Of a stretch of DNA of 52,214 nt, positions 1,604 through 52,214 are shown piece after piece; positions within the stretch are counted from its first letter, which is position 1; every line of letters begins with the position of its first letter. A program made the position numbers and the translations under genes. Source of the stretch: Bacillales bacterium UBA7057 (GTDB lineage: Bacteria; Bacillota_I; Bacilli_A; RF39; UBA660). Below the pieces are notes generated by a model. The model was not told the DNA's origin and made no database searches. It was given only the letters and a program-made list of their open reading frames with translations. Location: the NCBI GenBank assembly GCA_002493865.1, contig DLAC01000001.1, positions 1,330-53,543 of the forward strand, written 5' to 3'.

Positions 1604-1629
1604 ACTTCACCTCTAAATACTAGATAATG

Positions 1630-1671
1630 ATATAGTAAAGCAATCTTAATATTAAAATTGCTTTACTATAT
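1630..1671. repeat. Perfect 15-bp inverted repeat (ATATAGTAAAGCAAT / ATTGCTTTACTATAT) with a 12-nt spacer, between the secreted-protein gene and the ABC ATPase gene
   Basis: Read directly from the sequence. No adjacent T-run on either strand, so an operator or RNA processing/stability stem is more likely than an intrinsic terminator. A short AAAAGGT/ACCTTTT hairpin plus T-run lies just upstream of it on the minus strand (about 1672-1700). Confidence 0.6.
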
Positions 1672-1703
1672 CAAAAAAGGTTTATCACCTTTTTTGAAAA
1701 AAA

Positions 1704-2105: not shown

Positions 2106-2383
2106 ACTTTTACTTCCTTTCTTTTCATCTATAACAAACATTTATTTACAACTCGTACGCATTTTGTAAAAAACGTTGTTACCTAAATTATTAATCTATC
2201 TCTTTAAATTTCACCAAAAATCGACAATTTTCGCACACTTATATCTAAACAATAACATATTTTTTCCTTGAAATTTCAAAAAGGTGGGATTTGGTAAGTT
2301 TTTGGTGATATTTAGAATAATGTTCTATTAATTGATTTTTTAGAAAGGAATATTTTAAGTATTAAATCTATGAAAAAAAGAGA

Positions 2384-3082
2384 CTAGTCATCCCGATCTC
2401 TTCCAACTAAAATTAAAACATATCTTAAAATTTCAAGTAGAGTGGTTGCAAGTCCTGCAACATAAGTCATAGCTGCAGCCTTTAACATTTCTTCACTACC
2501 GGTATGTTCTTTTTTATCAAGAATCTTCATTTTATCCAAATATACAAGAGCCCTCTTCGATGCATCAAACTCAACAGGTAATGTAATTAATTGAAATAAT
2601 AAGATAACGAGTAGTAACCCGATTCCACCCCATGCAAGATTTAGCATGTTAAAGAAAAATCCAATCATAATCGCAAGATATCCAAACTTAGAAGCAAAAC
2701 TAACGAGTGGAAAAATAAACCCACGAAGACGGATAAAAAAGTATCCCTCTTTATCTTGAATTGCATGTCCTACCTCATGGGCTGCAACACTAACTGAAGC
2801 AATGCTCTCCCCATGATAAATGTCTGTAGATAAACGAACTACTTTGCGATTAGGGTCATAATGATCTGTTAACGTACCCTTGACTTCTGTCACATAGACA
2901 TCTGTAAGACCATTTTCATCTAGAATCATACGAGCAACTTCTTGCCCTGACAATCCTTTTTTATTGTTTACTTGTCGATAAGTCTTATATTTACTATTGA
3001 CAAAGTATTCAGCAATTAAAGTAATAACGACTCCAATAAAAACAAGTCCATATCCTATGAAATCATAACCATAATATGGCAT
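2384..3082 (-). CDS. Membrane zinc metallopeptidase, YugP-like (Zn_peptidase_2 type)
   Basis: HEVGHAIQ zinc motif. N-terminal TM plus C-terminal TM helices. Overall layout matches B. subtilis YugP-type proteins. Confidence 0.7.
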   Translation of the reverse strand: MPYYGYDFIGYGLVFIGVVITLIAEYFVNSKYKTYRQVNNKKGLSGQEVARMILDENGLTDVYVTEVKGTLTDHYDPNRKVVRLSTDIYHGESIASVSVAAHEVGHAIQDKEGYFFIRLRGFIFPLVSFASKFGYLAIMIGFFFNMLNLAWGGIGLLLVILLFQLITLPVEFDASKRALVYLDKMKILDKKEHTGSEEMLKAAAMTYVAGLATTLLEILRYVLILVGRDRDD

Positions 3083-3093
3083 ATTACCCCTCC

Positions 3094-4488
3094 TTATAAC
3101 AATTCATAAGTAGTACCATCACGGCTGTCAATTAAACGAATTCCCTTTTCTAATAACTCATCACGAATCGAATCTGCCTTTTCGTAATCTTTATTTTGTT
3201 TCGCAATATTTCTCTCTTCAATCTTATTTTGAATATAACTTTCTAAATCTTGATCTACTTCTTTTTCATCACTAGTTAAATCCAAAGATAATACTTTATC
3301 AAAGTCTTCAATTAAATAAAGTTTCGTAAAATCAGTTAATTCCTCGTCTTTTAAAACATCATAGACTAGTGTTAACATACTAGATGTATTTAAGTCATTG
3401 GAAATTGCTTCCTTAAAAGCATTTTGATAAAAATCAATTTTTCCTTCTTTTAAGTCTGGTGTACGGTCTAATTTTTCAATTCTTTTCTTTAGTTTTGCAT
3501 AAGCTTGTGCTGCCTGATCTAAGGCTTCATAAGTAAATGTTAATACTTTTCGGTAATGACTTCCTAAGCAGAAGTAACGATATGCGAGAGGATCATAACC
3601 TTTTTCTTCTAAAAGAGAAACAGTTAAAAATTCTCCATTCGATTTACTCATCTTGCCACTTTGATCATTTAAATGTTCTCCATGAACCCAGTAATTACAC
3701 CATTTATGTCCAAAGTAGGCTTCGCTTTGTGCAATTTCATTGGTATGATGAGGAAAAATATTATCGACTCCACCACAGTGAATGTCTAAGTATTCCCCTA
3801 AATATTTACCACTGATTCCACTACACTCAATGTGCCACCCAGGATATCCAACACCCCAAGGGGAATCCCATTTCATCTCTTGATTTGAAAATTTACTGAC
3901 CGTAAACCATAGACCAAAGTCACCAGGATTTCTCTTCGACTTATCTTCCTCTACGGTTTCACGAACTCCTACATATAAGTCTTCTGGATTCTTTCCAGAT
4001 AATTGATAATAATCTTTTGCCTTGCTGATATCAAAATATACATTTCCATCAGAAATATAAGCATACCCATCTTGTAACATTTTTTCAATCATTTTGATAT
4101 AAGTATCAATGTGATGACTCGCGGGTTCTACTGTAATTGGTTTTTGAATATTTAACTTCTCACAATCTTTAAAGAAAGCATCTGTATAAAACTGTGCAAT
4201 TTCATGAACGGTTTTTCCTTCACGGCGTGCACCCTTTTCCATCTTATCTTCGCCTTCATCCGCATCACTGGTCAAATGCCCAACGTCTGTAATATTCATG
4301 ACACGTTTCACATCATATCCTAAATAACGAAGTCCTTTTTCTAAAATATCTTCGAAAATATAGGTACGTAAATTTCCAATATGTGCATAATGATAAACCG
4401 TAGGTCCACAAGTATAAAGACGGACAACCCCCTCTTCCCTTGGAACAAACTCTTCAACTTGACGATTTAATGTATTGTATAATTTCAT
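3094..4488 (-). CDS. cysS: Cysteine--tRNA ligase
   Basis: Class I signatures HIGN (AHIGNLRTY) and KMSKS. Conserved [11 protein letters not shown] and WHIECS zinc/cysteine-binding blocks. 464 aa. Confidence 0.95.
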
Positions 4489-4551
4489 ATTTCCTCCTAC
4501 TACATAATACCAAATTATTATGGGAATATTATGGTTTTTGAACTCATTTTT

Positions 4552-4580
4552 ATTATAACACGCACTTACCCATTCGTAAA
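4552..4580 (-). promoter_or_regulatory. Sigma-A-type promoter for cysS (TTTACG-17-TATAAT with TGT extended -10)
   Basis: The minus strand reads TTTACGAATGGGTAAGTGCGTGTTATAAT, about 60 nt upstream of the cysS RBS AGGAGG. Confidence 0.5.
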
Positions 4581-4605
4581 TGAAAGATAAAAGAAAAAGG
4601 GAAAA

Positions 4606-6906
4606 TCATATGCTCTCTATGTGAACGTGATTTTGCCCTAATAAAATTTTTTCTATTACATAGGAATCTACTTTATCTTCAATGACTTTTCTAACCTTTC
4701 TTGCGCCAAATTCTGAATAGTTCGTAAGATCTAAAATTTGAGAGACTGTCTTAGATCCTAGTTGTAATTGAATTCCTTTTTCCTTAAACTTACTTCTAAC
4801 TTCTTTTAATTGTTTTTTTATAATCTCTTCCATCACCTCGGATGACAGATAAGAAAACTCAATAATTTTTCCAATTCGATTGACAAGCTCGACAGACATA
4901 AAATCTTGAATATCTTGCTCTACCTTTTTAGAGGATGTAGAAAATCCAAGAGGTTTCCCGTTAGTTCCTAAATTCGAAGTCATAATAATCATATGATGGG
5001 TAAAAGATACAGAGTTTCCCTTAGAATCCATGAGACGTCCATCTTCTAACATTTGTAAAAAAAGGTTTAAAACACTAGGGTGTGCTTTTTCTATTTCATC
5101 GAATAGAATCACGGCATGTGGTTTATTTCTAATTTCTTCTAATCGATTCGTACAATCATCATATCCAACATATCCGGGATTAGAACCGATAATTTTACTA
5201 ATAGAACTACTATCTGCATACTCGCTCATATCAAAACGAATAAAGTTCCCTTCTCCAAATAAAAGGTTACTATATTTTTCAGCAAGTAAAGTTTTTCCAA
5301 CCCCCGTAGGTCCTACAAACAAAAAGGAAGATGGCCTTTTAGAATCATGAAATCCAAGTTGAATTCGCTTAGTAACTTTGATAAGTTCATCGATTGCAGA
5401 ATCCTGTCCCTTAATTTCTTGCTTCAATTTTTTTTCTAGGCGATGGAACAATCCGTGTTGTAAATTCCCTACTTCATAAACAGGAATCTTAGTCTTACGA
5501 CTAATTACTTTAGAAACATCCTCTAACTTCACTGCTTTCAAATAAGAATGTCCATTCATTTTTAACTCCAAAGAATTAATTTTACTCGTAAGTTCCTTTT
5601 CCGCCCGTTTTAGACTGGATGCCTCATGAAATTTTTGACTCATGATACACTTATTTTTTTGTTTTAATAAATCCGCTAATTGTTCCTGATATTCCCCAAG
5701 TAATTTTCCTTTTCGATTTTTAGAAAGAGAAACACGAGAACAAACCTCATCTAAGATATCTAAAGATTTATCTGGTTGTTTTCGATTATTGATATAACGA
5801 TTGGTTAAAGAAATGATATTTTTTAAAATGGAATCCGATACTTGTACATGGTGATATTCCTCATATAGAGGTCGAAGTTTCGTTAAGATTTCATAGACGG
5901 TTTCATCTCTGGGTTCTTCAATAAAGACGCTTTGGAATCTACGATCAATGGCCTTATCTTTTTCAATAGATTGCTTATATTCATCCGTTGTGGTCGCACC
6001 AATTAAGCGAATCTTCCCACGAGCGAGCGCTGGTTTAAAAATATTGGCAGCGTCAATCGCACCTTCTGCTCCACCGGCACCCATTAATGTATGCACTTCG
6101 TCGATAAATAATAAGATACTGTCATCTTTTTCAATTTCTCCAATCATTTTGGTAATTCTCTCTTCAAATTCCCCACGATACTTAGTCCCAGCAACCAAAG
6201 AGGCAATGGATACAGATAAAATTCTTTTTTCAAGTAATTGATCAGGAACCTGTTTTTTTACAATTCTTCTCGCAAGTTCTTCGACAATGGCAGTCTTCCC
6301 AACTCCCGCATCTCCAATTAATAAAGGATTATTTTTGGTACGTCTACAAAGAATTTCCATCACTCGAGATAGCTCTTCTTCTCTACCAATCACAGGATCT
6401 AATCGATTGAGAGATGCTTCTTTCGTTAAATCTAATCCAAAGTCTTCAATCATTAATTTTTTATTTCCTTTTTTCTTTCGAACGATGACCTTACTAGAAA
6501 AATATTCTTGAAGTTCTCCCATATCTACATCCATTTGATTTAAAATTCGGATTGCTACACCTTCCCCTTCTTCTAAAACAGCTAGAAACAATTGATCACT
6601 GGTTACTTCTCCGTTGTTTGTCTCTTTCGCAAGTAAAATGGAAGTTTCAATTACTCTTTTTAAAAGAGGTGTAAACAGGAACCATCCATTCTCTTCTTTC
6701 CCCATTCCAATTTGTTCTACTACTCGGTCATAAAAGTCTTGATAAGTAATATGAAACTCCCCTAGTTTCTTTTTTAATTCCAAATTATTTTTTAGAATGG
6801 ATAAAACTAAGTGTTCACTGCCAACATAAGGATGCTTTAAATTCTGCATTTCTCTTTTCGCACCAAGCAGAACTTTCTGTGCTTCTTCACTAAATTTAGA
6901 AAACAT
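4606..6906 (-). CDS. clpC: ATP-dependent Clp protease ATP-binding subunit ClpC-like (class III AAA+ chaperone)
   Basis: Clp_N repeat at the N-terminus (FSEEAQKVLLGAKREMQNLKHPYVGSEHLVLSIL). Two AAA+ modules with Walker A GDAGVGKT and GPTGVGKT. 766 aa. Ends in TGA. Confidence 0.85.
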   Translation of the reverse strand: MFSKFSEEAQKVLLGAKREMQNLKHPYVGSEHLVLSILKNNLELKKKLGEFHITYQDFYDRVVEQIGMGKEENGWFLFTPLLKRVIETSILLAKETNNGEVTSDQLFLAVLEEGEGVAIRILNQMDVDMGELQEYFSSKVIVRKKKGNKKLMIEDFGLDLTKEASLNRLDPVIGREEELSRVMEILCRRTKNNPLLIGDAGVGKTAIVEELARRIVKKQVPDQLLEKRILSVSIASLVAGTKYRGEFEERITKMIGEIEKDDSILLFIDEVHTLMGAGGAEGAIDAANIFKPALARGKIRLIGATTTDEYKQSIEKDKAIDRRFQSVFIEEPRDETVYEILTKLRPLYEEYHHVQVSDSILKNIISLTNRYINNRKQPDKSLDILDEVCSRVSLSKNRKGKLLGEYQEQLADLLKQKNKCIMSQKFHEASSLKRAEKELTSKINSLELKMNGHSYLKAVKLEDVSKVISRKTKIPVYEVGNLQHGLFHRLEKKLKQEIKGQDSAIDELIKVTKRIQLGFHDSKRPSSFLFVGPTGVGKTLLAEKYSNLLFGEGNFIRFDMSEYADSSSISKIIGSNPGYVGYDDCTNRLEEIRNKPHAVILFDEIEKAHPSVLNLFLQMLEDGRLMDSKGNSVSFTHHMIIMTSNLGTNGKPLGFSTSSKKVEQDIQDFMSVELVNRIGKIIEFSYLSSEVMEEIIKKQLKEVRSKFKEKGIQLQLGSKTVSQILDLTNYSEFGARKVRKVIEDKVDSYVIEKILLGQNHVHIESI

Positions 6907-6965
6907 AACAATCCCTCCTATTTTCAGTCTATGATTATTATGCTAAATTTAGAATATTTTTAAAC

Positions 6966-6996
6966 AGAAAAAGAAAAAAGAGCAACAAGCTCTTTA
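6966..6996 (-). terminator. Rho-independent terminator downstream of ORF 7002-7298
   Basis: The minus strand reads AAAGAGCTTGTTGCTCTTT followed by TTTCTTTTT. Confidence 0.6.
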
Positions 6997-7001
6997 TATT
7001 T

Positions 7002-7298
7002 CTAACGAACAGGTACACCAAATTCAGGAAAAACCTTTTGTTGAGTTTTCTGATTTTGATAAGCCTTTACTTTTACTGGTACATGATTCTCATACAATAA
7101 ACTACATCCACCGACCTGACCATAGCCTGAATGACTAACTGGGTGATATCCAGGTGGACAACTAACAAATGAAGTTTTTTCATGATCACTAGAAAAAATA
7201 AATTTTTTACTATTTTGATAATCAATCAAAATATAATGCTTACCAGGTCGAAGGACAACCTCTCCTAAATAAATGTTTTTTGCTTTTCTCCCAAACAT
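7002..7298 (-). CDS. Hypothetical protein (98 aa)
   Basis: Start refined to MFGRKAKNIYLGEVV after RBS AAGGGGGT; the ORF track extends to 7325. No recognisable motif. Confidence 0.45.
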   Translation of the reverse strand: MFGRKAKNIYLGEVVLRPGKHYILIDYQNSKKFIFSSDHEKTSFVSCPPGYHPVSHSGYGQVGGCSLLYENHVPVKVKAYQNQKTQQKVFPEFGVPVR

Positions 7299-7352
7299 AT
7301 AATTTACCCCCTTGAGTTGACACATATAATAACATAAAATAGGAAAAATGTA

Positions 7353-7383
7353 AAGAAAAAGGATAGAACCGAAGTCCTATCCC
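7353..7383 (-). terminator. Rho-independent terminator downstream of the YfcC-like transporter gene
   Basis: The minus strand reads GGATAGGACTTCGGTTCTATCC followed by TTTTTCTTT. Confidence 0.6.
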
Positions 7384-7400
7384 TTCACTCTCTTATTATT

Positions 7401-8981
7401 TTATAAAGCTAAGATAATTAAGAAAATAACAACTAAAATAGCTAATAATGTTAGGAATAATTTCCAAATAAATTTTAACCATTGTTTATAAGAAACATTT
7501 AAATAAGAAAGTGTACCCATTAAGATAAAGCTTGTTGGTGCTACTAATAAAGCTAATCCATAAATAGATTGGAAAATAACAGAAATTAATGGGTATAGAC
7601 TTGAATCAGTAATTACACTTTGAACATATGGTAATGTACTTTGTGTAACATAAGTTAAATCAACATTGAAGAATGATGATAATAATGATACAAGCGTCAT
7701 AGTTACAACATTGATACCTGAAGTAAGATCAAGCAAGAACTTCGCAATGGTTAATTGGAATGGATGATAAGTAACAACAACTAATACTACATAAGTTAAT
7801 AAGATAACTACAGCAGGTTCAATTGCTCTTTTAAATCCATCACAAATTCCGTCGATAAAGTCATCCCATTTTACACGATATACAAGTGCTAAAATAATAG
7901 TAGCAATCATAATGAGTGCAGGAATTTCAATACCTAAACTCCATTGACCAAATGCTTGAACTTGTCCTAATAATTTTCCAAAAATCTCAAATCCAAAGAT
8001 TTCATAAGTAGTTACAGCCTCTGTTGCATCTTGGAACCAAGAAATTTCGAATAAACCATTCCAATCAAAAACTGAAATTGCCATACAAATGAGTACAAGA
8101 TCAAAGATAATGGCAAATGGCCAAATATTTGCTTTCTTTTCTGATTTTGATTTAACTACCAAAGTTTCAGAATTCTCTTTTGCCATAGCTGCACTATTTT
8201 TTGCTGGACGTCCTCTCTTACCAGTTGATTTGGTAGTAGATTTAGTAGATTTCTTAGTAGTTTTAGATTTTGCTGGTTGTTTCGCAACCTTTTTAGATTC
8301 TTTTACTACTACTTTTTCTGGTTCTACCATTGCTTCTTCTTTTGGTGTTTCTTTGACTTCAACTGTAGAATTTTTTGTCTTTTTGCTATAAAGAACAACT
8401 TGTGCAATTAGTAATACGATGAAGATGACTAAGATAATTACTTTTGAAATCATCTCATCAAAAGCAGTCAATCCTAACATTTGATTCATATAACTAGTTG
8501 TCATCGTTCCAAGTGTTGTACCTGCAATACCAGCAACTGTTGATCCAACGGTAACTGTTGCAGCCACTAAACGGTTGTATCCCATTTTGATAACGACATC
8601 AATCACAAATGGAAATACAAAGATAATAGGAATTGAAATTCCAGTAACTGAAACAATTACAGAGATTAGAATGATGATAGCGCTTAGGAAAAGATATTCC
8701 ATTCCCTTAAAACCATCTACAATCCTTTCAACTAATTGATGATAGGCAGAAGTTCTGTAAGCGACTCCATAGAAAATACCACAAGTAAGTACAAATAATA
8801 AGATACTTCCAAAATATTGTAGTGCAATTCCTGGATAAGCAAATAGGTCAAACAATCCTGCTTGGATTCTCTCCCCTTCTACAAGAGTATCTGTGAATTG
8901 TGTACTAGGAAATATCCAAGAACAAATTGCAACAGCAACAATCGTAAAGAGAAGAACTTTTAAAATACTATGTTTCTTCAT
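7401..8981 (-). CDS. YfcC/DcuC-type polytopic membrane transporter with a lysine-rich AT-hook-like insertion
   Basis: Start refined to MKKHSILKVLLF after RBS GGGAGGG; the ORF track extends to 9095. About 10 or more hydrophobic helices. A central ~85-aa hydrophilic K/S/T-rich loop contains GKRGRPAK. Confidence 0.6.
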   Translation of the reverse strand: MKKHSILKVLLFTIVAVAICSWIFPSTQFTDTLVEGERIQAGLFDLFAYPGIALQYFGSILLFVLTCGIFYGVAYRTSAYHQLVERIVDGFKGMEYLFLSAIIILISVIVSVTGISIPIIFVFPFVIDVVIKMGYNRLVAATVTVGSTVAGIAGTTLGTMTTSYMNQMLGLTAFDEMISKVIILVIFIVLLIAQVVLYSKKTKNSTVEVKETPKEEAMVEPEKVVVKESKKVAKQPAKSKTTKKSTKSTTKSTGKRGRPAKNSAAMAKENSETLVVKSKSEKKANIWPFAIIFDLVLICMAISVFDWNGLFEISWFQDATEAVTTYEIFGFEIFGKLLGQVQAFGQWSLGIEIPALIMIATIILALVYRVKWDDFIDGICDGFKRAIEPAVVILLTYVVLVVVTYHPFQLTIAKFLLDLTSGINVVTMTLVSLLSSFFNVDLTYVTQSTLPYVQSVITDSSLYPLISVIFQSIYGLALLVAPTSFILMGTLSYLNVSYKQWLKFIWKLFLTLLAILVVIFLIILAL

Positions 8982-9142
8982 ATTAACCCTCCCATTATTA
9001 ATTATAACAATATTTACTGTAAAATCAATATATTTAGGTGAAAGTTTGGTGAAATTTACCAAAGAATCAATTAAAAAAGAAAAAGAAAAAGTCAAAATTC
9101 ATCTAAAAAAATCCAACATTTCTGCTGAATTTTCTCTAAAAA

Positions 9143-10630
9143 TTATTCTTTATCTGTATCCGCTGAAAGTGGTCTCATCAGTGGGAACATTACAACATCA
9201 CGGACACTTTCACTTCCAGTTAATAGCTGAACGATACGGTCAATTCCCATCCCCCAACCTGAAATTGGTGGCATTCCATACTCCATCGCACCAATATAGT
9301 CATAATCCATATCCATGGCTTCTTCATCTCCTGCTGCCTTTAAGTTAGCCTGCTCTAAAAGTCGACGTTCCTGTTCTTGAGGATCTACAAGTTCTGAATA
9401 TCCATTGACGATTTCGGCTCCATTAATGACTAATTGGAAGCGATCACTGATTTCAGGACGATCATCATTACTTCTTGCAAGTGGAGAAAGACTGGTTGGA
9501 TGTTCTGTTAAATAAACAGGCCCCAACATATGAGGACGTGCCACTTTCTTATATAAAACATCTACTAAGTTTCCAAATCCAAGATTCTCAAGTGGTGTTT
9601 CACTTTCAACTTCTATCTTCTCTTCTAAGATTTTAGAAAGTAACTTCTCTTTTGTATTATAAACATCAATATCAATATTGGCATATTTGATTAATAATTC
9701 TCTAAAAGTTACTCTTCCCCAATCTCCACTTAAATCAATTTCTTTATCACCAAAGGTAATCTTTAAGGTACCAAAAATATTCATAATAATTGTCTGAAGC
9801 ATATGTTGGATTAACTTCATATTATCTTCGTAATTAAAGTATGCTTGGTATCCCTCTACCATCGTGAAGTCTTGTAAGTGAGAGGCATCCATTCCTTCAT
9901 TTCTAAAACAACGTGCAACTTCATATACCTTAGGAATTCCCGCAACCACTGCTCTTTTTAAATAAGTTTCAGGAGCAATTCTTAAATATACATCTAAATC
10001 CAGTGCATTATGATGAGATTTAAATGGTCTAGCAGTCGCCCCACTTGCCTTATTATTTAAAATTGGTGTTTCTATTTCCATATATCCCAAGTTATCTAAA
10101 TAATTTCTTAACTCTCTAATAAATTTTACACGAACCATAAAACGATTTCTAGTTTCCTGATTCATAATTAAATCCACATATCTTTGACGGTAACATGCCT
10201 CTAAGTCTGTTAATCCATGGAACTTCTCAGGAAGTGGTTTTAGCGCTTTTCCAAGGAATTCAAAGTGATCTGCACGTAATGTTTTTTCTCCCGTATGTGT
10301 CGTAAAAATTTCTCCTACTGCACCAATAAAATCCCCAACATCAATATTGGATTTGAAGAATTCATAGTTTTCTTCTCCTACTAAATCAATTTTAATTGAA
10401 ATCTGAAGATCTCCTTCAATATCTCTAATTTTTAGAAAACTCATCTTCCCCATTTTTCTCATGAAAACAATACGTCCTGCAACCGAAACATCCTTCGTTT
10501 CATCCTCTAATAGACTCGCTTCTTTTAAAGAATGTGTAACCTCAAAACGTTCTGGATATGGATTACAGAATTCACGTATCTTATTTATTTTATCTCTACG
10601 AACTAATTCCTGTTCTGAAAATTCTCTCAT
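9143..10630 (-). CDS. lysS: Lysine--tRNA ligase (class II)
   Basis: N-terminal OB anticodon-binding domain. Class II motifs (FRNEG, GMGIDRIVQLL). 495 aa. Conserved dusB-lysS neighbourhood. Confidence 0.95.
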   Translation of the reverse strand: MREFSEQELVRRDKINKIREFCNPYPERFEVTHSLKEASLLEDETKDVSVAGRIVFMRKMGKMSFLKIRDIEGDLQISIKIDLVGEENYEFFKSNIDVGDFIGAVGEIFTTHTGEKTLRADHFEFLGKALKPLPEKFHGLTDLEACYRQRYVDLIMNQETRNRFMVRVKFIRELRNYLDNLGYMEIETPILNNKASGATARPFKSHHNALDLDVYLRIAPETYLKRAVVAGIPKVYEVARCFRNEGMDASHLQDFTMVEGYQAYFNYEDNMKLIQHMLQTIIMNIFGTLKITFGDKEIDLSGDWGRVTFRELLIKYANIDIDVYNTKEKLLSKILEEKIEVESETPLENLGFGNLVDVLYKKVARPHMLGPVYLTEHPTSLSPLARSNDDRPEISDRFQLVINGAEIVNGYSELVDPQEQERRLLEQANLKAAGDEEAMDMDYDYIGAMEYGMPPISGWGMGIDRIVQLLTGSESVRDVVMFPLMRPLSADTDKE

Positions 10631-10645: not shown

Positions 10646-11605
10646 TTAATCTACCATGATTACTTTTGTTTTTGCGAGACGGTCATGAAGACCCCTTCCA
10701 GTATTAGAGTACATCACCATAAAGATAGAAACAATAATTAATACCGTTTGTATCCCTTGTACTGTAAAACTAGCGTAATAATAATACTCTCTTCCCATAA
10801 ATAAAACCAAAGCGATAATTAACATTTTACTAATAATAGATGGAATAATAAAAGATCTAAGAATATATTGATTCATACTTACTTCTCCATCATCCTCGGA
10901 AACAACCCGAATCCTTAGTAACCTTTTTCCAATCGTCTGCCCCTTATTATAGAATTGAAATACAATAAAATAAAGAATGAGTACTACAATCTCCATAATC
11001 ATAGGTAAAACATTATTATAATCGATATCATAAACGATTTCTGCAGTTTTATTTACATATTCATCAGAATCCATATTTCCCTCTAAGAAAGAAGATTGAA
11101 GTTTTTGATATTCTGTTAAATAAGCTGTATAGTTTTTGTTTTCTGGAACTACGCTAATAAATAGAGTAGAAAGAACGGTAACAATGATAATATCAATTAG
11201 ATATGCTAAAACTCTTGGAAAGAAATAAGCCTTTGGACGACTAGTTACTTTTTCTTCGATTGTTTTTGATTCTAATAAAACTTCCGCTACTTCTGGTTTT
11301 GCTTCCTCTTTTACTTCCGGTTCTAGCTGTTTTCCTTTTTTCTTTTTTACCTGTTTTTCTTCTGTTTCTTTTTTTGCTTTTATTTCTTTCGATGTCACTT
11401 TTTTTGAAGAATTTTTACTCTTTGACTTTGTAGTCTTAGTAGTAGTACTCTTTTTATTTTGAGTCTCTTTCTTTTTCTTTGCAGTAGATGGCTTCTCTTT
11501 TTTAGAAGAAGCCTTTTCTACAAACTCTCCCTCTACTGTTTTTCCTTTTTTTAAACGATTCGTTTCTTTCTTTGAATCTTCTTTATTTGTTGCCATGAAA
11601 TTCAC
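10646..11605 (-). CDS. RDD-family membrane protein with a ~125-aa lysine-rich N-terminal tail
   Basis: The C-terminal half matches the RDD pattern (FPRVLAYLIDIIIV ... GQTIGKRLLRIRVV ... RGLHDRLAKTKVI) with 3 TM helices. The N-terminus is low-complexity K/S/T/E. Confidence 0.65.
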   Translation of the reverse strand: MNFMATNKEDSKKETNRLKKGKTVEGEFVEKASSKKEKPSTAKKKKETQNKKSTTTKTTKSKSKNSSKKVTSKEIKAKKETEEKQVKKKKGKQLEPEVKEEAKPEVAEVLLESKTIEEKVTSRPKAYFFPRVLAYLIDIIIVTVLSTLFISVVPENKNYTAYLTEYQKLQSSFLEGNMDSDEYVNKTAEIVYDIDYNNVLPMIMEIVVLILYFIVFQFYNKGQTIGKRLLRIRVVSEDDGEVSMNQYILRSFIIPSIISKMLIIALVLFMGREYYYYASFTVQGIQTVLIIVSIFMVMYSNTGRGLHDRLAKTKVIMVD

Positions 11606-12583: not shown

Positions 12584-12679
12584 ACTAATCCCTCAAATCA
12601 CTATAGATAATACCATAAATACAAAAAAAAAGAAACAAAATGCACGATAAAACAATTTGTTAATTCTATCAATTTTAAC

Positions 12680-13390
12680 TTATTTTAATACTTTTTGTTT
12701 CAAATATGCAGAAACTTCCCATTCTTTCCCACCTAAAAAAGTATGACCATTCAAAAGTTCATCGCGAAACAAACAATAAAATTTTGGGCCTACTGGTAAA
12801 TCAAGAATTGGATGATTTTGATCAGTCAGAAAGTTCTCTAAAGAAATCGTCGAAATAACTACAGGATTAAATAAACGATGATAAGTTTCTTCTGAAATGA
12901 CTAAATTAGAGGTATAATCCATACAAACATGGTCTTTTTTAATAAAACTATGCACAATTCTAGTAGAATCAAACCCGTCTAAATCACGGCCATCTACATA
13001 AGCAGTTACTAAAGTTCCACCACAATCTGGAAATACTCGCATACATCCAGAATGACATCGAATAAATCTTCTTTTTAAACTTAATAAATCTAAGGAAACT
13101 CTTAAATTTCGAATTCTATTTTTTTTGAGCAAATCATCTGATAAGCGAAAGAATTCTATTGTTTCATCTTTCAAAGAAACTTGAAATGCCTTATGACTAC
13201 ATTTTTTTAATCGAAAACCTTCAATGAAACGACATAACCACATTTCAAAATTATACGATGTAAATGTATAAAGAGCATCCACAAATGGATTTAAAGGTCT
13301 CCCAATTTCCTTTGAAAACAAAAATATGGAGTTATTTCCTTTATGAATTCCATACACATTATAATCAGTATTTACAGCATTCTTTTTCAT
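12680..13390 (-). CDS. Unknown-family protein C2 (236 aa), paralog of 14531-15244
   Basis: Start refined to MKKNAVNTDYNVYGIHKGN after RBS GAGGTGAT; the ORF-track extension to 13477 would overlap the radical SAM gene. Shares YGIH.GN near the N-terminus and VHS.I...DYTSNL.ISE..Y..L..P ... P.G.KFYCLFR.ELLNGHTFLGG.EWEVS at the C-terminus with C1. Confidence 0.7.
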   Translation of the reverse strand: MKKNAVNTDYNVYGIHKGNNSIFLFSKEIGRPLNPFVDALYTFTSYNFEMWLCRFIEGFRLKKCSHKAFQVSLKDETIEFFRLSDDLLKKNRIRNLRVSLDLLSLKRRFIRCHSGCMRVFPDCGGTLVTAYVDGRDLDGFDSTRIVHSFIKKDHVCMDYTSNLVISEETYHRLFNPVVISTISLENFLTDQNHPILDLPVGPKFYCLFRDELLNGHTFLGGKEWEVSAYLKQKVLK

Positions 13391-13418
13391 ATCTCCAATC
13401 ACCTCAAGCGAATCTACT

Positions 13419-14534
13419 TTAATTAATATTAGATGGAATTTTCTCATACTGTAAAAATTTCGAATAAACTCTCGCATGTTCTTGAATGGTTTCTTTCGAA
13501 AGTTGATCTAAAGAATGAGATTTTACAAAGGAAGAATCTTGATATCGGTTAACTTCTACAAATTCCAAAAATGGTTTTATTTCCTTTAATACCCGCATAG
13601 TTGTTTTTACATCTTCCATGGTTTCTGTTGGATATCCTGCAATAATATGTGTATCTAATTTTTTGATAGAATCTTGATTAATAAATCGATAAAAGTCTAA
13701 AAACTCCTCAATTGTATATCCTTTATCCATAAGTCCAAGGATTCGATTATCCCCAGATTCTAGAGAACCACAAATTGTTTTTACTTTACTAGACCTCTTT
13801 AATGAATATTTAAAATCATGATGAATGGCATCCCTAAAAGCAAATCCAACAAGTATTACATTTTTTATATGTTCCTTTTCTTCTATATAGTCAATGAAAG
13901 AAGGTAATAAATATTCTTGATGTGTATCTAAACCAAATTGACTGATATTCATTCCCCTAATATAAACCGTTTCAATCCCCTTTTGATCCATAGTATCCAC
14001 CAATGTTTTTGCGCCAGAAATATCCATACTAACTAATGGAATTTTTTGAAAAGTTGTCTTACAAAAAGCACATTGATTTAAACAACCACTAGAAATATAT
14101 AGATTGGCCATATGATCATCCAAAGCATCTCTAGATACAAAACCGAATTCATAAAATTCATCATCAAACTTTTCTTTCAATAAATCACTCAATAACTCAT
14201 TTATTTTAGTACTTGGAATTATATGATCAATATGAGTATTTAAATAGTTACGAATATTAGTAAATTGACTAGGATCTAAAAAGTCACGAGCTAAACAACC
14301 GGTTAAATAGGTTTTAGCCTCCGGCTTCTTTTTTTCTAAAATAAAATCTATATAACCAATCATCATATAAATTCTGTCCTTGTAGCATGAACAAGTAGAA
14401 GCAAAAATAATGACATCTGCTTCCTCTGGTTGCGTAACAAATTCATACCCCTCAATTCTCTCTAATTCACACATAATTTCAGAGTATTGATAGTTTACAC
14501 CACAACTAAAATTTTTACCCATAAATATTTTCAT
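13419..14534 (-). CDS. Radical SAM enzyme, methylthiotransferase (MiaB/RimO)-like, without a TRAM domain
   Basis: CxxxCxxC radical SAM motif in SSGCLNQCAFCKT. The N-terminal UPF0004-like domain has three spaced Cys (NFSCGVN, ASTCSC, LTGCLA). The protein ends about 40 aa after the radical SAM core, leaving no room for a TRAM domain. The start overlaps the C1 stop (ATGA). Confidence 0.8.
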   Translation of the reverse strand: MKIFMGKNFSCGVNYQYSEIMCELERIEGYEFVTQPEEADVIIFASTCSCYKDRIYMMIGYIDFILEKKKPEAKTYLTGCLARDFLDPSQFTNIRNYLNTHIDHIIPSTKINELLSDLLKEKFDDEFYEFGFVSRDALDDHMANLYISSGCLNQCAFCKTTFQKIPLVSMDISGAKTLVDTMDQKGIETVYIRGMNISQFGLDTHQEYLLPSFIDYIEEKEHIKNVILVGFAFRDAIHHDFKYSLKRSSKVKTICGSLESGDNRILGLMDKGYTIEEFLDFYRFINQDSIKKLDTHIIAGYPTETMEDVKTTMRVLKEIKPFLEFVEVNRYQDSSFVKSHSLDQLSKETIQEHARVYSKFLQYEKIPSNIN

Positions 14535-15244
14535 TGTTTGTAACCCCCTAATGTTTTTTGTTTCACACCATCAGAAACTTCCCACTCTTCTCCACCAAGA
14601 AAGGTATGTCCATTCAAAAGTTCATTTCTAAATAAACAATAAAATTTTAAACCCATTGGAAGAGAAACTATAGGAGACTTTCTATCCGATAAATATTCTT
14701 CATGAGACACTTGATTTAAAACAGTAGGATGTACCAAATCCTCATAATCTTTTTCTGAAATCCCTAAATTACTTGTATAGTCAATGATCTTATTCTTTCT
14801 TCGAATATAACTATGTACTACTCGAACCTTTCCACTGGAGTCATCTACATAGGAAGTTTCTAGAATTCCTCCAAGCGAATTAAAAAAATAGAAACTTCTA
14901 AAATGACACTCTCCCTTTCGTTTGTCATGAGTTAGCAATTCTAACTTGTAAGGGATTAATTTGATGGGGTGATTACCAGTTAGTACATCAGAAAACCTAG
15001 AAAACTCTAGAAATTTTTCTCCAAACCAAAGTCTATATTTATCATGATTTTCTCTTTGTAATTTAAAACCCATTTTGTTATATTTCATATGACGAAAAGG
15101 ATTACAAGAAGTATAGGCACGAATCGCACCCATTCTAGTATCAAATTCTATATCCTTAGGCTCTGCAAAAAACATTTGCACATTTCCCATATGAATTCCA
15201 TAAGAGTTATATTTAATATTTTTATCCCTAATTGTAAAATTCAC
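14531..15244 (-). CDS. Unknown-family protein C1 (237 aa), paralog of 12680-13390
   Basis: Likely GTG start (VNFTIRDKNIKYNSYGIHMGN) after RBS AGGGGTGG; the ORF-track TTG start is at 15283. Long collinear similarity to C2, strongest in the C-terminal 90 aa. Confidence 0.7.
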   Translation of the reverse strand: MNFTIRDKNIKYNSYGIHMGNVQMFFAEPKDIEFDTRMGAIRAYTSCNPFRHMKYNKMGFKLQRENHDKYRLWFGEKFLEFSRFSDVLTGNHPIKLIPYKLELLTHDKRKGECHFRSFYFFNSLGGILETSYVDDSSGKVRVVHSYIRRKNKIIDYTSNLGISEKDYEDLVHPTVLNQVSHEEYLSDRKSPIVSLPMGLKFYCLFRNELLNGHTFLGGEEWEVSDGVKQKTLGGYKQ

Positions 15245-15294
15245 AGTACCACCCCTGATTCTATTTGAAAAAAGAAATACCAAAATGATATTTC

Positions 15295-15744
15295 TTAGCG
15301 TTCATATTTGAAGTTTCTCATATAAACTACTTGATCTGGATCCCTTCCCATATCACGAAGTTGCTTATCAAGTTCTTCTTTTTTCATCGGAACATCTGGT
15401 TCTGGATGATTATAGCTTTCAACAAGCATAGAAATAAACCCGTTCTTTGTATCACGAAATTCTTCATCTGATTGAACGTCTTGCATGCTTGCATTCACAA
15501 CATCTAGAAATTGTTGTACTCTGTTTTGACGCATCGCATAAATTAATAATTGACTGCTATGCTCCATGAAAAATGAAAAAATTGCTACATCCATCATTTG
15601 ATCTGGATTTCTTTTGACAAGACGCTCAAAATAAGCCATCTCTTCATAAGTAATCACTAACTTTCCATAATAATGCCACCAATGTTTTAACAATTTTGTC
15701 TTTTCATCTTCTGAATATTGATCCCATTCTTTGATTTCCATCAT
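15295..15744 (-). CDS. Unknown-family protein A (149 aa)
   Basis: MEIKEWDQYSEDEKTKLLKHWWHYYGKLV. RBS AAAGGGGAAC. Paralog of the interrupted gene at 16499-16924. No recognisable motif. Confidence 0.65.
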   Translation of the reverse strand: MMEIKEWDQYSEDEKTKLLKHWWHYYGKLVITYEEMAYFERLVKRNPDQMMDVAIFSFFMEHSSQLLIYAMRQNRVQQFLDVVNASMQDVQSDEEFRDTKNGFISMLVESYNHPEPDVPMKKEELDKQLRDMGRDPDQVVYMRNFKYER

Positions 15745-15763
15745 TTTCTAGTTCCCCTTTCAA

Positions 15764-16483
15764 CTAAAAGCTTCCTTTTTTCTTTTGAACTTCCGAATTT
15801 TCTTCTAACACTTCTTCCCCATCTTCTAGTGCTGGATCCTCTTTAATAAGGGCCAGTTCCTCTAATACATCCCCTAGCTCATCTTTAAAAAATTGAATAG
15901 CTGCATCCATATCTTGATTAGAGAATCTTTTAACTTCTTCCATTTGAATACAATCTAACACTTCAGAATAATAAGAAAGAATTTTAGATTTTCCTAAAGT
16001 TTCTATTCGTATCTGATTTAAAAACACATGTTCTTTATATTCACGAATATAAGATATTAGTTGATCAAAATTCGTAGTTGCTTGAATTGGGAACATCCCA
16101 TTGATTGCTTTCTCAATTTTTTCTTTGTTAGTATCTTCCACTTGTGGTGATACTAATTCACGAATTACACCCATATCTCCATCCATGAGTCGGTCAATGA
16201 GAGAAACTAATTTTGGTAGTTGATAACTAACATATTCCCATTGATAAATAGGAATTGTTTGGTTGGAAGACGGTATTGATTCATTATATAAAAATCTCTT
16301 TTTTACATCGGTAATTGTTTCTCCCTCTTTTGGCATTACTTCTTTAGGCCCTGCACAAGAAATCTTAGTTGCCTCTATACATCTTTCTGAAACAGTTTCT
16401 CGAATTCTTTGTAATTTTACAAAGTCAATGGTCACATCGTATTTAACTGTTTCATTTCCTTCACTTACGTAATAAATCATCAT
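15764..16483 (-). CDS. Unknown-family acidic protein B (239 aa)
   Basis: RBS AGAGGGGAC. Strongly acidic C-terminal tail (EDPALEDGEEVLEENSE). No recognisable motif. Lies 15 nt downstream of the preceding gene. Confidence 0.6.
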   Translation of the reverse strand: MMIYYVSEGNETVKYDVTIDFVKLQRIRETVSERCIEATKISCAGPKEVMPKEGETITDVKKRFLYNESIPSSNQTIPIYQWEYVSYQLPKLVSLIDRLMDGDMGVIRELVSPQVEDTNKEKIEKAINGMFPIQATTNFDQLISYIREYKEHVFLNQIRIETLGKSKILSYYSEVLDCIQMEEVKRFSNQDMDAAIQFFKDELGDVLEELALIKEDPALEDGEEVLEENSEVQKKKGSF

Positions 16484-16498
16484 AGTCCCCTCTTTCTT

Positions 16499-16924
16499 CT
16501 AAGAAAAATAATGTTTTGTTATTTCTCTCCTAACTTTTATTCCTAGTTCTACGGCGCCTGTTGTAATTTCTTGCTCATCAGTAGTTGCCATAGTAATATT
16601 ACATAATCCAACAAGTGTAGTAATAATTTGTTTTTTTAGAAATTGATGGTCTTCATCATCACTCAAACTAGGTACATCTGCTAGCAACTTATCCAAGGAT
16701 CCATTTCGCATAACTTGAATCATTGTCTCAGCATTATGACCCAACGTTGTTAAGATAACAATAAAATCCAGAATTAAATCAATATCTCTTTCTAATAAAT
16801 GATTAAAATATTCCCTATCTTCTTTCGTAAGAATATCCTGATTTCTGTTAGAATAAGCAAATCAAAAATTTAATAAAATTCTCTTTTCAGAAAAAGAATA
16901 CTGATCCCAAGGCTTAATTTCCAT
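16499..16924 (-). pseudogene. Paralog A' of protein A, interrupted by a single in-frame TGA (codon 21, nt 16864-16862)
   Basis: ATG at 16924 after RBS GAAGGAGAGGG gives MEIKPWDQYSFSEKRILLNF-TGA-FAYSNRNQDILTKEDREYFNHLLERD. This continues in the same frame into track ORF 16499-16744. The total of 426 nt is a multiple of 3. The TGA aligns with W21 of paralog A (LLKHWWHYYG). Confidence 0.7.
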
Positions 16925-16951
16925 AATATCCCTCTCCTTCAAATGCACTAT

Positions 16952-16980
16952 ATATTAGCACAAAAGACATAAAAAGTCAA
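16952..16980 (-). promoter_or_regulatory. Sigma-A-type promoter of the six-gene cassette (TTGACT-17-TAATAT, TG at the extended -10 position)
   Basis: The minus strand reads TTGACTTTTTATGTCTTTTGTGCTAATAT, immediately after the ftsH terminator and about 25 nt upstream of the A' RBS. Confidence 0.55.
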
Positions 16981-16994
16981 TCAATTGTTGCTCG

Positions 16995-17018
16995 AAAAAA
17001 AAGAGGTTAATCCTCTTT
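16995..17018 (-). terminator. Rho-independent terminator of ftsH
   Basis: The minus strand reads AAAGAGGATTAACCTCTTTTTTTT. The hairpin includes the ftsH stop codon. Confidence 0.65.
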
Positions 17019-20375: not shown

Positions 20376-20406
20376 TAGAAAAGAAGTGCATATATTTTAC
20401 ACTTCT
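20376..20406 (-). terminator. Rho-independent terminator of the LRR-like protein gene
   Basis: The minus strand reads AGAAGTGTAAAATATATGCACTTCT followed by TTTCTAT. The stem overlaps the stop codon. Confidence 0.5.
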
Positions 20407-22861
20407 ACCATCGAAATACAATTTTTACAATGAGGAATCCAATAAAGAAAAGGAAATTTAGTAAGAATAAAATACCAAGAATAGAAACACCATGATTCTT
20501 TGGAACTGACGTTAAAGAAGGAATAGAGGATTTTTGATACAAGTCTTCTATGGTAAGATATAATGATTCTAAATAAGCATATTGAAAATCCTTGGGAACA
20601 ATTAAACCATCACTACTCTCTAAATTAGTTAAATATAAGGTACCTCCAATGAACTTTGATAATCCCAAATTCTCTGCAGAAAGTAAATTTCCTAAGAATA
20701 CATCTCCACCAATCCAAGGGGATAATTGAAACGAAGAAGCATGAATCATTCCATCTAGTGAGCAGTCTCTTCCAATAAAATCAGGAAATTCTACATTTTC
20801 TAGATGAGTCACACTTTCTAAGCCTAGGCTTCCCCCAAGATAAGAAGGAAACTTTTGATTTTTAGCAGTAATTAAGTTCTCGAGATTTAAGTCCCCACTG
20901 ATATGTTCTGGAAACTTAAAGTTTTCAATATAGGTTAGACTTTTTAAAATCAAATCTCCTTCCAGGGATTCTGGTAAAATTAAATCATCGGTACTTACTA
21001 AACTACTTAAATCTAGTGTACCATTTAATTGTTTTGGAAGTTGTAATCCTCCAGCATATTTTAAAGATTTTAATCCTAGACCCCCTCCAAGAAATTTAGG
21101 TAAGGTTAACTCATTCGCACTCTCTAGCCCATTCATCCAAAGATTTCCATGAAGGATTGTAGGAAGCCTCAATCCATGTGCACTCTTTAATCCATTGAGC
21201 CAAAGTTCACCAAAAATCTCATCCGGTAGCTCTAGTCCCTCTATATCCAGAAGACCATTAAGTCCTAAATCCCCTCCAAGACTAGAAGGCAGTTCTATCC
21301 CTTTCACACATTTCAAATGACTGAGCCATAAATCTCCTTTCACTGTTTCAGGTAACTGAAATCCACCCTTGGGAACTCGTTCTAATGAATTTAACCTTAC
21401 GGAACCAAGAACGGTCTTTGTGAATTGAACATCTTTGATGTCTGTTACATTTTCTAAATTCAAATTTCCATAAATATATTCAGGAAACTCTACTTTTTCT
21501 AGATGAGAAAGCCCTGATAGATTTAATCCTCCTCCAATAATAAATCTAGGAAGGGAAATCCCTTCTAAAGTATGAAGAAACGATAAATCTAAATGACCAT
21601 AAAAGTATTTGACCTGTTTTCCATTTAAAACATCGGAGGTATCACTCGATATTTCGTCTTCTCTACAATGAAATATTTCCATTAAATCCTGTTTGTAATC
21701 TCTTGTTTTTAGGATTTCGCTGATTCTTGGATCACTCCCATAGCCAAATCCCTCAATCTTATTATCAATCTGGTAAAGAAACCGAATTTCATCTAAAGTA
21801 AGTTCCGATGTTTGAACCTTTGTATAAATACTGGTCAACTTTTTCATATCAGAGACTTTCTTTTTATACCTCTTTCCATCTGGAAATTCTTTTAATTTTT
21901 CTTCTAACGCAGGTTGCATTTCTGGTTCTATCTCTTGTCTTGGCGCAATTCCACGAATTTCTTCAATCTTATTTTTTCCATTCATCCAAATCGCAATTCT
22001 TGGATTTTTATAAAGTCCTTCGGAGTCTTTCGTATAATATACATAGAAATCTCCTTTTTGAAGTTCCCCTTTGGCCGTTTCAATTCCTGCGGTACACCAG
22101 TTCGTTCCACTTCCTTCAATTCCCTTGACTAATATATTTGGATCACTTCCCTGATCATATTTAATCCAAATACCTTCATTCATGTCCTTCCTTGATAATT
22201 CAACCTTCCGTAACATATATCCATACAGTTTTGAAAAACTACCATTTTCTAATAATCTCTGTAAGACAGGTTCCTCTACTGGTTCTCCATGGAGTTCATC
22301 CTGTAAATTTTGATATACGAGTTCTAAAGCCTCCTTATCTAAATGTACAAATAAATTTGTAGTAGAAGTCGATCTTTTATTAAATTGAGACTTTTCATGA
22401 TCATAGGTTCCAAGTTTAAGCATTCCTTGAAAAGCATAATACTTAAACCATTCTGGATAAGGACATTCTTCACTAAAGAAATAATCTAGCCAAACATCCA
22501 AGGACTTTTTTTGATCTCCAATGACTGCTGAAACTAAGTCCTTCTTTTCTTCTTCTGTAAATTCAATATGACCATATCCTCGATCAAGAGCCATTAATTT
22601 TTTCTTGTCGTAAAAGGACTCTTTGATGTTTTCTTCTTTTATAATATATTTTTGGTAATAGAGTTCTTTCAGTAATTGAATTCCATGAAGATCTCTACTC
22701 CTAGCCAAATTTTCTACTCTATTTAACCGATCTAAATATTTGCGCACCTTTTCATTTTTATCATCTTTTGAAGTTGCAGTATGCATCACGGAATCACTCA
22801 TATGTAAATCTTGATATAATCGGTTTAAGAAACTTTCCCCATGATAATGATAATCTCCCAT
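20405..22861 (-). CDS. Large tail-anchored protein: unknown ~420-aa N-terminal domain, ~16 x 21-aa LRR-like repeats, C-terminal TM helix
   Basis: No signal peptide (MGDYHYHGESFLNRLYQDL). Repeat unit resembles L.LP..l.G.L.L..L.s...., for example LELPDEIFGELWLNGLKSAHG / LRLPTILHGNLWMNGLESANE / LTLPKFLGGGLGLKSLKYAGG. The last 28 aa (GVSILGILFLLNFLFFIGFLIVKIVFRW) are hydrophobic. Confidence 0.75.
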   Translation of the reverse strand: MGDYHYHGESFLNRLYQDLHMSDSVMHTATSKDDKNEKVRKYLDRLNRVENLARSRDLHGIQLLKELYYQKYIIKEENIKESFYDKKKLMALDRGYGHIEFTEEEKKDLVSAVIGDQKKSLDVWLDYFFSEECPYPEWFKYYAFQGMLKLGTYDHEKSQFNKRSTSTTNLFVHLDKEALELVYQNLQDELHGEPVEEPVLQRLLENGSFSKLYGYMLRKVELSRKDMNEGIWIKYDQGSDPNILVKGIEGSGTNWCTAGIETAKGELQKGDFYVYYTKDSEGLYKNPRIAIWMNGKNKIEEIRGIAPRQEIEPEMQPALEEKLKEFPDGKRYKKKVSDMKKLTSIYTKVQTSELTLDEIRFLYQIDNKIEGFGYGSDPRISEILKTRDYKQDLMEIFHCREDEISSDTSDVLNGKQVKYFYGHLDLSFLHTLEGISLPRFIIGGGLNLSGLSHLEKVEFPEYIYGNLNLENVTDIKDVQFTKTVLGSVRLNSLERVPKGGFQLPETVKGDLWLSHLKCVKGIELPSSLGGDLGLNGLLDIEGLELPDEIFGELWLNGLKSAHGLRLPTILHGNLWMNGLESANELTLPKFLGGGLGLKSLKYAGGLQLPKQLNGTLDLSSLVSTDDLILPESLEGDLILKSLTYIENFKFPEHISGDLNLENLITAKNQKFPSYLGGSLGLESVTHLENVEFPDFIGRDCSLDGMIHASSFQLSPWIGGDVFLGNLLSAENLGLSKFIGGTLYLTNLESSDGLIVPKDFQYAYLESLYLTIEDLYQKSSIPSLTSVPKNHGVSILGILFLLNFLFFIGFLIVKIVFRW
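20567..21601 (-). repeat. Degenerate 63-nt coding tandem repeats (about 16 units) encoding the 21-aa LRR-like array
   Basis: The period was derived from the protein repeats (residues ~421-765). The units are diverged at nucleotide level. Confidence 0.7.
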
Positions 22862-52058: not shown

Positions 52059-52081
52059 TATTATCACTTCCAAACAAAAAA

Positions 52082-52158: not shown

Positions 52159-52214
52159 TATTCTATTATATTTTTTTAAAAAAAACAAGAATTATTATTA
52201 ATTTTATGTTTCAC

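Follow-up and report, generated by a model that had tools for sequence, protein, structure and literature searches.

A gene cluster between ftsH and dusB of uncultured Bacilli, with a TRAM-less methylthiotransferase-like radical SAM family and a candidate transglutaminase/papain-like family

Introduction

Do the six co-directional minus-strand open reading frames (ORFs) that separate ftsH from dusB in Bacillales bacterium UBA7057 form a single functional system, and did they reach this position together? The genes lie in a 52,214-nucleotide stretch of contig DLAC01000001.1 (positions 1,330 to 53,543 of the forward strand; hereafter the window, meaning this whole stretch), and an earlier note on this DNA had described them as a self-contained unit inserted into a conserved slot. 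Sequence comparison leads us to a different view, in which the cluster is a lineage-restricted accessory set that grew by stepwise accretion around a resident gene, here called C. Its two core families both appear to be new, one being a methylthiotransferase (MTTase)-like radical S-adenosylmethionine (SAM) family that lacks the TRAM domain, and the other a transglutaminase-like family whose N-terminal domain and C-terminal motif are both new. A functional coupling between the two is plausible, and we weigh it below against other explanations of their proximity.

In Bacillus, the interval between ftsH and dusB carries coaX, hslO, cysK, pab and fol genes. MTTases, the enzymes to which one member of the present cluster is related, have been described as three-domain proteins acting on A37 of tRNA or on Asp88 of ribosomal protein S12 (PMC10702137, PMC2952846), and four subgroups are known (PMC2952846).

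Layout of the cluster

The six genes are listed in their order of reading, with their positions in the window.

16499-16924, minus strand: A', 141 codons, a paralog of A with TGA at codon 21
15764-16483, minus strand: B, 239 amino acids (aa)
15295-15744, minus strand: A, 149 aa
14531-15244, minus strand: C1, 237 aa, GTG start behind GGGGTGG
13419-14534, minus strand: radical SAM gene, 371 aa, TRAM-less and MiaB/RimO-like
12680-13390, minus strand: C2, 236 aa, ATG start behind GAGGTG, adjoining dusB

The intergenic gaps from A' to C2, recomputed from these coordinates, are 15, 19, 50, -4 and 28 nucleotides (nt), the negative value corresponding to an ATGA in which the stop of C1 overlaps the start of the radical SAM gene. 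Two paralog pairs are present, C1 and C2 (41% identity, E 3e-57) and A and A' (31% identity, E 6e-15). The layout, the gaps, the paralog pairs, the in-frame TGA and a promoter-like site upstream of A' are all as the earlier note had given them. Conserved homologues of each of the six genes exist in other assemblies, and we therefore regard all six as real. The start codons chosen for C1 and C2 seem reasonable, since both the family alignment and a homologue of 237 aa that had been called independently support them.

The cluster is bordered by tilS and ftsH on one side and by dusB, an RDD-family gene and lysS on the other. As a mobile-element signature, direct or inverted repeats were looked for at the flanks of the cassette, and none were present.

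A TRAM-less MTTase-like family of radical SAM proteins

The radical SAM protein matches PF00919 (UPF0004) with its N-terminal domain (38.4 bits against a gathering threshold of 27) and also PF04055 (Radical_SAM; 36 bits against 29.5), and the solved structures closest to it are those of MiaB (7mjv, E 5.6e-13) and RimO (4jc0, E 7.9e-12), which bears out the proposal of an MTTase-like core enzyme. As in MiaB, RimO and MtaB (TIGR00089), a UPF0004 domain with three Cys for an auxiliary [4Fe-4S] cluster precedes a central radical SAM domain with a CxxxCxxC motif, and the conserved motifs GFPTET and (Q/E)SGS..IL are kept. The auxiliary-cluster residues Cys11, Cys48 and Cys80, which align with those of MiaB and RimO, and the radical SAM residues Cys151, Cys155 and Cys158 (C151-x3-C155-x2-C158) are invariant in 34 aligned family members.

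In contrast to MiaB, RimO and MtaB, the protein of the window has no C-terminal TRAM domain. It gives no match to PF01938, and its chain stops within the linker helix, at residue 371; all family members examined (the same 34) stop in the linker preceding the canonical TRAM position, and the nearest canonical relatives (P0238 and P0239) carry PF01938. The family shares at most 26% identity with canonical members and sits on a long separate branch. The NCBIfam score of the window's protein for TIGR00089 lies below the cut-off (132.7 bits against 251), as do those for the curated equivalogs MtaB (112.4 against 357), MiaB (84.4 against 355) and RimO (79.8 against 357). A database search yielded about 63 clusters at 90% identity, with lengths of 353-391 aa and 39-77% identity, after which the score falls from 258 bits to 78 bits where the canonical TRAM-bearing MTTases start. 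Because TRAM is missing from every member, the drop in score is sharp and the curated cut-offs are not reached, the protein belongs to a discrete TRAM-less MTTase-like family outside the known subgroups. All named members are 'Bacilli bacterium' proteins from metagenome-assembled genomes (MAGs), and no member was found in IMG/VR.

Most members with a readable context are solitary, in varied surroundings (L016/L098, L018, L026, L099). In L099 the gene sits after recA, and in L016/L098 it lies in an island of RHS-toxin, M23 peptidase, holin, Bro-N and RhuM genes. The L098 relative has 53% identity, and the collection lists the identical protein in 78 blocks; the island around it (1-9471) comprises genes for an RHS/YD-repeat protein of 2022 aa, for an M23/LysM peptidase and for a holin, together with DUF5071 immunity-like, Bro-N and RhuM genes. 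Several more distant relatives are pseudogenes: four metagenome contigs (L019, L020, L022 and L024; about 43% identity) have a common in-frame TAA, three of them (L019, L020 and L024) additionally a common TAG, and L026 has a frameshift. In view of these stops and this frameshift, the family appears to be dispensable in some lineages.

A candidate transglutaminase/papain-like family

Scanned directly against Pfam, NCBIfam, PADLOC and PHROGs, C1 and C2 gave no match, and a word-indexed search retrieved just 13 relatives. When 1.84 billion representatives were searched exhaustively with a profile, 382 relatives came up, 60 of them at E<=1e-10. Across 89 aligned relatives, Cys113, His144 and Asn159 are invariant, and Arg109, His114, Asp155 (at least 90%) and Thr157 nearly so, within the motifs R-x-G-x-C-H, V-T-G-Y, H-S-W-I-E and D-Y-T-x-N-L. 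Both C1 and C2 keep a full Cys-His-Asp triad, whose C1 codons, as placed by this alignment, are the following.

14906-14908, minus strand: Cys113 of C1
14813-14815, minus strand: His144 of C1
14780-14782, minus strand: Asp155 of C1

The order and spacing of these motifs, G-x-C...(V/I)-x-G-Y...H-(S/A)-W-x-E...D-(Y/P)-T, are those of transglutaminase/papain-like enzymes, examples of which are LapG-type proteases, PNGase and lasso-peptide B proteases. In an AlphaFold2 (AF2) model of C1 built on the 89-relative alignment (predicted local distance difference test, pLDDT, 87.6; predicted template modelling score, pTM, 0.84), Cys113 opens a helix (113-124), His144 lies in a strand (140-149) and Asp155 ends the consecutive strand (152-155), a predicted secondary structure that would fit the papain/transglutaminase arrangement. 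Twelve weak, sub-gathering Pfam matches occur among the 89 relatives, eight to DUF553 (PF04473, 'Transglutaminase-like domain') and four to Transglut_core (PF01841), and no other Pfam family is matched by more than two of the 89.

Profile-profile alignment provided a further comparison. As a template for hhalign we used the core domains of six proteins fished from plasmid records with a consensus-like query; four of these are annotated as transglutaminase-family or transglutaminase-domain proteins, one of them also as DUF3488, and the L111 stretch has no annotated feature. The 89-sequence C profile aligned to the six-protein profile over 68 columns (probability 85%, E 6e-6, score 41.0), pairing the Cys, the VxGY segment, the His and the Asp. 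Control scores were 8.3 for the reversed template, at most 18.4 in 30 column shuffles, and at most 16.7 for unrelated profiles.

Structure searches weigh against this placement, since Foldseek found no match at E<=0.001 in PDB or BFVD for either of two AF2 models of C1 (pLDDT 75.7 and 87.6), giving scattered weak papain-like matches to LapG, staphopain, AvrPphB, OspI and VASH2. The C profile had no match among PDB sequences, and with an approximate human PNGase core hhalign paired no more than 18 columns, at the Cys motif, with a probability of 0.8%. No Pfam domain that might mark an informative fusion was found in the longer C relatives, and no member of the family was found in IMG/VR. On balance, we consider it likely that C forms a family of its own, new to the transglutaminase/papain-like superfamily, in which the catalytic triad is intact. 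With such a core, and with triad residues that are invariant or nearly invariant, C1 and C2 look like enzymes, their activity being predicted, rather than passive substrates or scaffolds; the earlier note had suggested that they could be substrates, scaffolds or specificity partners. That note had been able to assign no motif to A, B or C; this still applies to A and B, but C can now be placed at the superfamily level.

Two parts of the protein differ from transglutaminase/papain-like enzymes, namely an N-terminal domain of about 110 aa and a C-terminal motif, KFYCLFR..L.NGHTF, neither of which has a known counterpart. The motif stands out at the nucleotide level as well: a direct repeat of 138 nt (75% nucleotide identity) links the 3' end of C2 (12686-12823) and the 3' end of C1 (14549-14686) and encodes the region KFYCLFR..L.NGHTFLGG.EWEV, whereas the rest of the two proteins is far less conserved. 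This pattern indicates either strong constraint on the C-terminal motif or gene conversion. A neighbour-joining tree groups the slot's C proteins in a single clade, in which C2 has a long branch. The C proteins are soluble and basic, with an isoelectric point (pI) of about 9 (9.0 for C1).

The acidic proteins A, A' and B

Where A' has its in-frame TGA (codon 21, 16862-16864), both A and the A' orthologs of L001 and L008 carry a Trp at the aligned position. L101 and L102, two assemblies with 97.6% identity across the cassette, have TGG at that codon and an intact A' of 141 aa. A reading of TGA as Trp (genetic code 4) or a recoding event is ruled out, as TGA ends eight of the 45 long ORFs in the window and the sister strains have TGG; on the same grounds, the codon appears to be either a very recent nonsense mutation (TGG>TGA, which would make A' a pseudogene) or a sequencing error. 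A' appears, moreover, to be dispensable.

A, A' and B gave no family match in Pfam, NCBIfam or PHROG and have no membrane segments. All three are acidic (pI 4.6-5.0, with 4.6 for B and 5.0 for A). Homologues of B number four among 5.8 billion clustered proteins, and orthologs of A and A' are restricted to L001, L003/L004/L007, L008 and L101/L102. We considered B as a defence protein on the basis of a weak PADLOC match (Aga_REase-PNTD, E 5.5e-4); the match is missing in four B orthologs and was set aside as due to chance. A search for remote relationships among A, B, C, the radical SAM protein and the cargo proteins of L013 found none. A/A' and B thus appear to be orphans confined to a handful of related genomes.

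Distribution and history of the locus

Every close relative lies in the same slot of uncultured Bacilli, between tilS-ftsH and dusB-RDD-lysS; in a scan of 185,579 species genomes, only four had a confirmable close C relative. The genes therefore recur together outside this genome, as lineage-specific cargo in a conserved slot, a description by the earlier note that holds. Their number and identity differ from genome to genome.

L103-L105: C alone
L002/L009: radical SAM, C
L003/L007: A, C, radical SAM
L001: A', B, A, C, radical SAM
L008 (MAG MGBC119928): A', B, A, radical SAM, C (C frameshifted)
The window and L101: A', B, A, C1, radical SAM, C2
L013: two unrelated proteins, including a multi-pass membrane protein, then C
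L010: GNAT-like, XRE, Ltp-like repeats, a small membrane protein and a decayed C remnant

The nested versions of one, two, three, five and six genes in a single slot show stepwise accretion around C, the resident gene upstream of dusB in these related Bacilli, and not the arrival of one inserted unit, as had been supposed. Since a neighbour-joining tree places the C-linked radical SAM genes together in a single clade among otherwise solitary ones, the radical SAM gene joined C once, in one sub-lineage. A was added next, then A' and B, and the second copy of C in the strain group of the window. L002/L009 have the radical SAM gene and C without A, and leave no space for a hidden ORF.

The suggestion that C-family genes might always flank an MTTase-like gene is not borne out. 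Besides the loci in which C is alone (L103-L105) or follows unrelated cargo (L013), distant C relatives occur alone and elsewhere in the genome (L011, L014). In L008 (7965-8668), where the radical SAM gene upstream is intact, a frameshift divides C into an N-terminal part of 63 aa and a C-terminal part read in a different frame, which reflects either a pseudogene or an error of MAG assembly. In the more distant relative L010, the decayed C gene has no Cys-bearing middle part, and positions 4826-8372 encode a 371-aa GNAT-domain protein, an XRE-type helix-turn-helix protein on the opposite strand, and a secreted protein with three Ltp-like repeats.

Between genomes, the flanking proteins FtsH, DusB and LysS are 90-98% identical and the cassette proteins 40-77%. 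TilS (75-87%) and the RDD protein (50-73%) diverge as well. Divergence between the window and L101 is patchy, with 17 mismatches in a 100-nt stretch of A' (16601-16700) and 37 at 13301-13600, where the 3' end of the radical SAM gene meets the 5' end of C2, and almost none in A and C1. One protein in the database (P0176) is chimeric, its C-terminal half being identical to the radical SAM protein of the window. Together, the patchy divergence and this chimera suggest recombination between strains within the cassette.

Possible functions of the cluster

The reading that we tentatively put forward is a two-component model, in which the radical SAM protein would perform MTTase chemistry on a non-canonical target, with C as its partner and the acidic orphans as accessories. 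The enzyme would activate a C-H bond by radical chemistry and insert sulfur or a methylthio group from its auxiliary cluster, on a target that is not among the three known MTTase substrates and would most likely be a protein. C would act on, or present, the same target, either as a thiol hydrolase or transferase or as a docking partner standing in for the missing TRAM. A, A' and B would be dispensable acidic accessory partners, and candidate substrates or inhibitors of the basic C proteins. A precedent for a protein-modifying MTTase helped by a separately encoded partner is E. coli RimO with YcaO; in contrast to that pair, C is unrelated to YcaO, and RimO keeps the TRAM domain that the enzyme of the window has lost. 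The fully specified version, a new two-component protein-modification system that places a methylthio or thio group on a target other than tRNA or S12, with C replacing TRAM and A, A' and B as substrates or regulators, is in our view unlikely.

Several features make a coupling of the radical SAM protein and C plausible. The ATGA overlap of C1 and the radical SAM gene is present in both the window and L101, gaps are short in all other loci with an intact C, the six co-directional genes are tightly packed behind one promoter-like site, and the duplicated C flanks the radical SAM gene. The pairing of basic C proteins with acidic A and B likewise fits the model.

A number of observations weigh against the model. 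Each of the two families occurs without the other, and adjacency in a slot of two to six genes is weak evidence of joint function. The clade-specific C tail (NGHTF...W) was considered as a docking or substrate site for the radical SAM enzyme, which predicts the tail only beside a radical SAM gene, and was rejected; a tail-bearing C (P0258) is the sole gene between ftsH and dusB in L103-L105. The frameshifted C of L008, unless it is an assembly error, adjoins an intact radical SAM gene. Nor does the loss of TRAM by itself indicate a protein target, since RimO has a TRAM domain although its substrate is a protein (PMC10702137).

The explanation that fares best among the alternatives is that these genes are neighbours by accretion only, in a slot that collects unrelated accessory genes, with the radical SAM protein working alone, as its solitary relatives have to (for instance as a TRAM-less tRNA or ribosomal-protein methylthiotransferase), C being an independent hydrolase, and A and B unrelated to either. 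The solitary radical SAM genes of L016/L098, L018, L026 and L099 would be expected if this were so, as would the occurrence of C alone or with other cargo (L103, L013, L011, L014), the quite different contents of the slot in L010 (GNAT-like, XRE and Ltp-like proteins) and in L013 (the multi-pass membrane protein), and the intact radical SAM gene of L008 beside a broken C; the neighbouring genes tilS, dusB and lysS are, in addition, tRNA-related. Mere accretion accounts less readily for the ATGA overlap shared by two strains, for six co-directional genes with gaps of at most 50 nt behind a single strong promoter-like site, and for a duplication that put C on either side of the radical SAM gene; the scores of the radical SAM protein also lie far below the cut-off of every curated tRNA and RimO MTTase. 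We regard this explanation as possible, if somewhat improbable.

A role in conflict, as a toxin/immunity-like or anti-phage system with the basic papain-like C and/or the radical SAM protein as effectors and A, A' and B as inhibitors or sensors, is quite doubtful. It would suit the variable slot, the lower identity of the cassette (40-77%) relative to FtsH, DusB and LysS, a gene content that varies with duplication and pseudogenisation, sister strains whose patchy divergence resembles that left by recombination, the relative in the RHS-toxin/holin/Bro-N/RhuM island, the Ltp-like gene in the L010 slot and the acidic/basic pairing of the proteins. On the other hand, no reproducible match to PADLOC-DB 2.0 was obtained (nothing for A, C and the radical SAM protein, and the weak one for B), no member of either core family was found in IMG/VR, and no domain typical of sensors or effectors, such as a nuclease or an NTPase, was detected. 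C, furthermore, is stably resident across the lineage and not mobile, and the contrast in rates is not extreme, given that TilS and the RDD protein diverge too. A phage origin was rejected, as both core families were absent from IMG/VR.

Lasso-peptide B proteins are transglutaminase-like leader peptidases. A pathway for peptides that are made on the ribosome and modified after translation (RiPPs), with A and A' as precursors, C as leader peptidase and the radical SAM enzyme tailoring the core peptide, would draw on the duplication of the candidate precursor gene and on the meeting of papain/transglutaminase-like and radical SAM enzymes in one cluster, but is very improbable: orthologs of A and A' (140-149 aa) are conserved end to end, C-termini included, which argues against a leader with a hypervariable core, L002/L009 have the radical SAM gene and C without A, A' is dispensable, and Pfam and NCBIfam scans revealed no RiPP recognition element (RRE), SPASM or transporter domain and no immunity gene, leaving the peptide-modification reading of the earlier note without specific support.

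The combination of this radical SAM protein with C is undescribed in the literature searched, where a query for a TRAM-less MTTase or a pairing of radical SAM and transglutaminase-like proteins brought up nothing specific. To our knowledge, only three types of MTTase substrate are established, i6A37 and t6A37 in tRNA and Asp88 of S12, and all described members have three domains. A family that keeps both clusters and has lost TRAM is accordingly a candidate to act on a fourth class of substrate or to recognise its substrate in a new way, and it is confined to uncultured, mostly gut-derived Bacilli. C would represent a previously unannotated transglutaminase/papain-like branch of 382 representatives, with a fixed place beside dusB in this lineage. 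The locus versions with one, two, three, five and six genes amount to a natural experiment on the dependencies among the genes. If the genes are independent neighbours, what is left is a pair of new, uncharacterised families sharing a variable slot, which is of value for annotation and unsurprising; as yet, nothing points to a specific new chemistry or substrate.

Transcription-related signals and other features of the window

The signals around the cluster are sequence pattern matches, and as such predicted.

16952-16980, minus strand: promoter-like site upstream of A', sigma-70-type TTGACT-17-TAATAT with a TG extension, the top match of the pattern scan
17000-17018, minus strand: terminator-like hairpin and T-run at the ftsH stop, seven pairs of which three are G-C, followed by TTTTTTCG
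12607-12615, minus strand: extended -10-like TGGTATTAT upstream of dusB, read by eye from the sequence

The site before dusB (TGGTATTAT) is absent from the list produced by the -35/-10 pattern scan. Promoter-like sites are not enriched in the region (20, against 27.5 in shuffles, that is, fewer than expected), and we therefore treat these signals as anatomy and not as proof of transcription. Another terminator-like hairpin, of nine pairs, lies inside the C1 coding region (15113-15133, minus strand); because the number of hairpins found equals that expected from shuffles, it is probably a chance match.

Elsewhere in the window, an 818-aa ORF (20405-22861, minus strand) lies between divIC and tilS, a position that spoIIE takes in B. 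subtilis; neither this ORF nor its L003 counterpart has a Pfam match. The window contains no tRNA gene over its 52 kb. A T-box leader (33440-33642, minus strand; 108 bits) and a small bacterial signal recognition particle (SRP) RNA (52066-52164, minus strand; 62.6 bits) are present. The RDD-family membrane protein encoded 3' of dusB (10646-11605, minus strand) has a long low-complexity N-terminal region rich in Lys, Ser and Thr, and shows 50-74% identity between genomes in which FtsH, DusB and LysS are at 90-98%.

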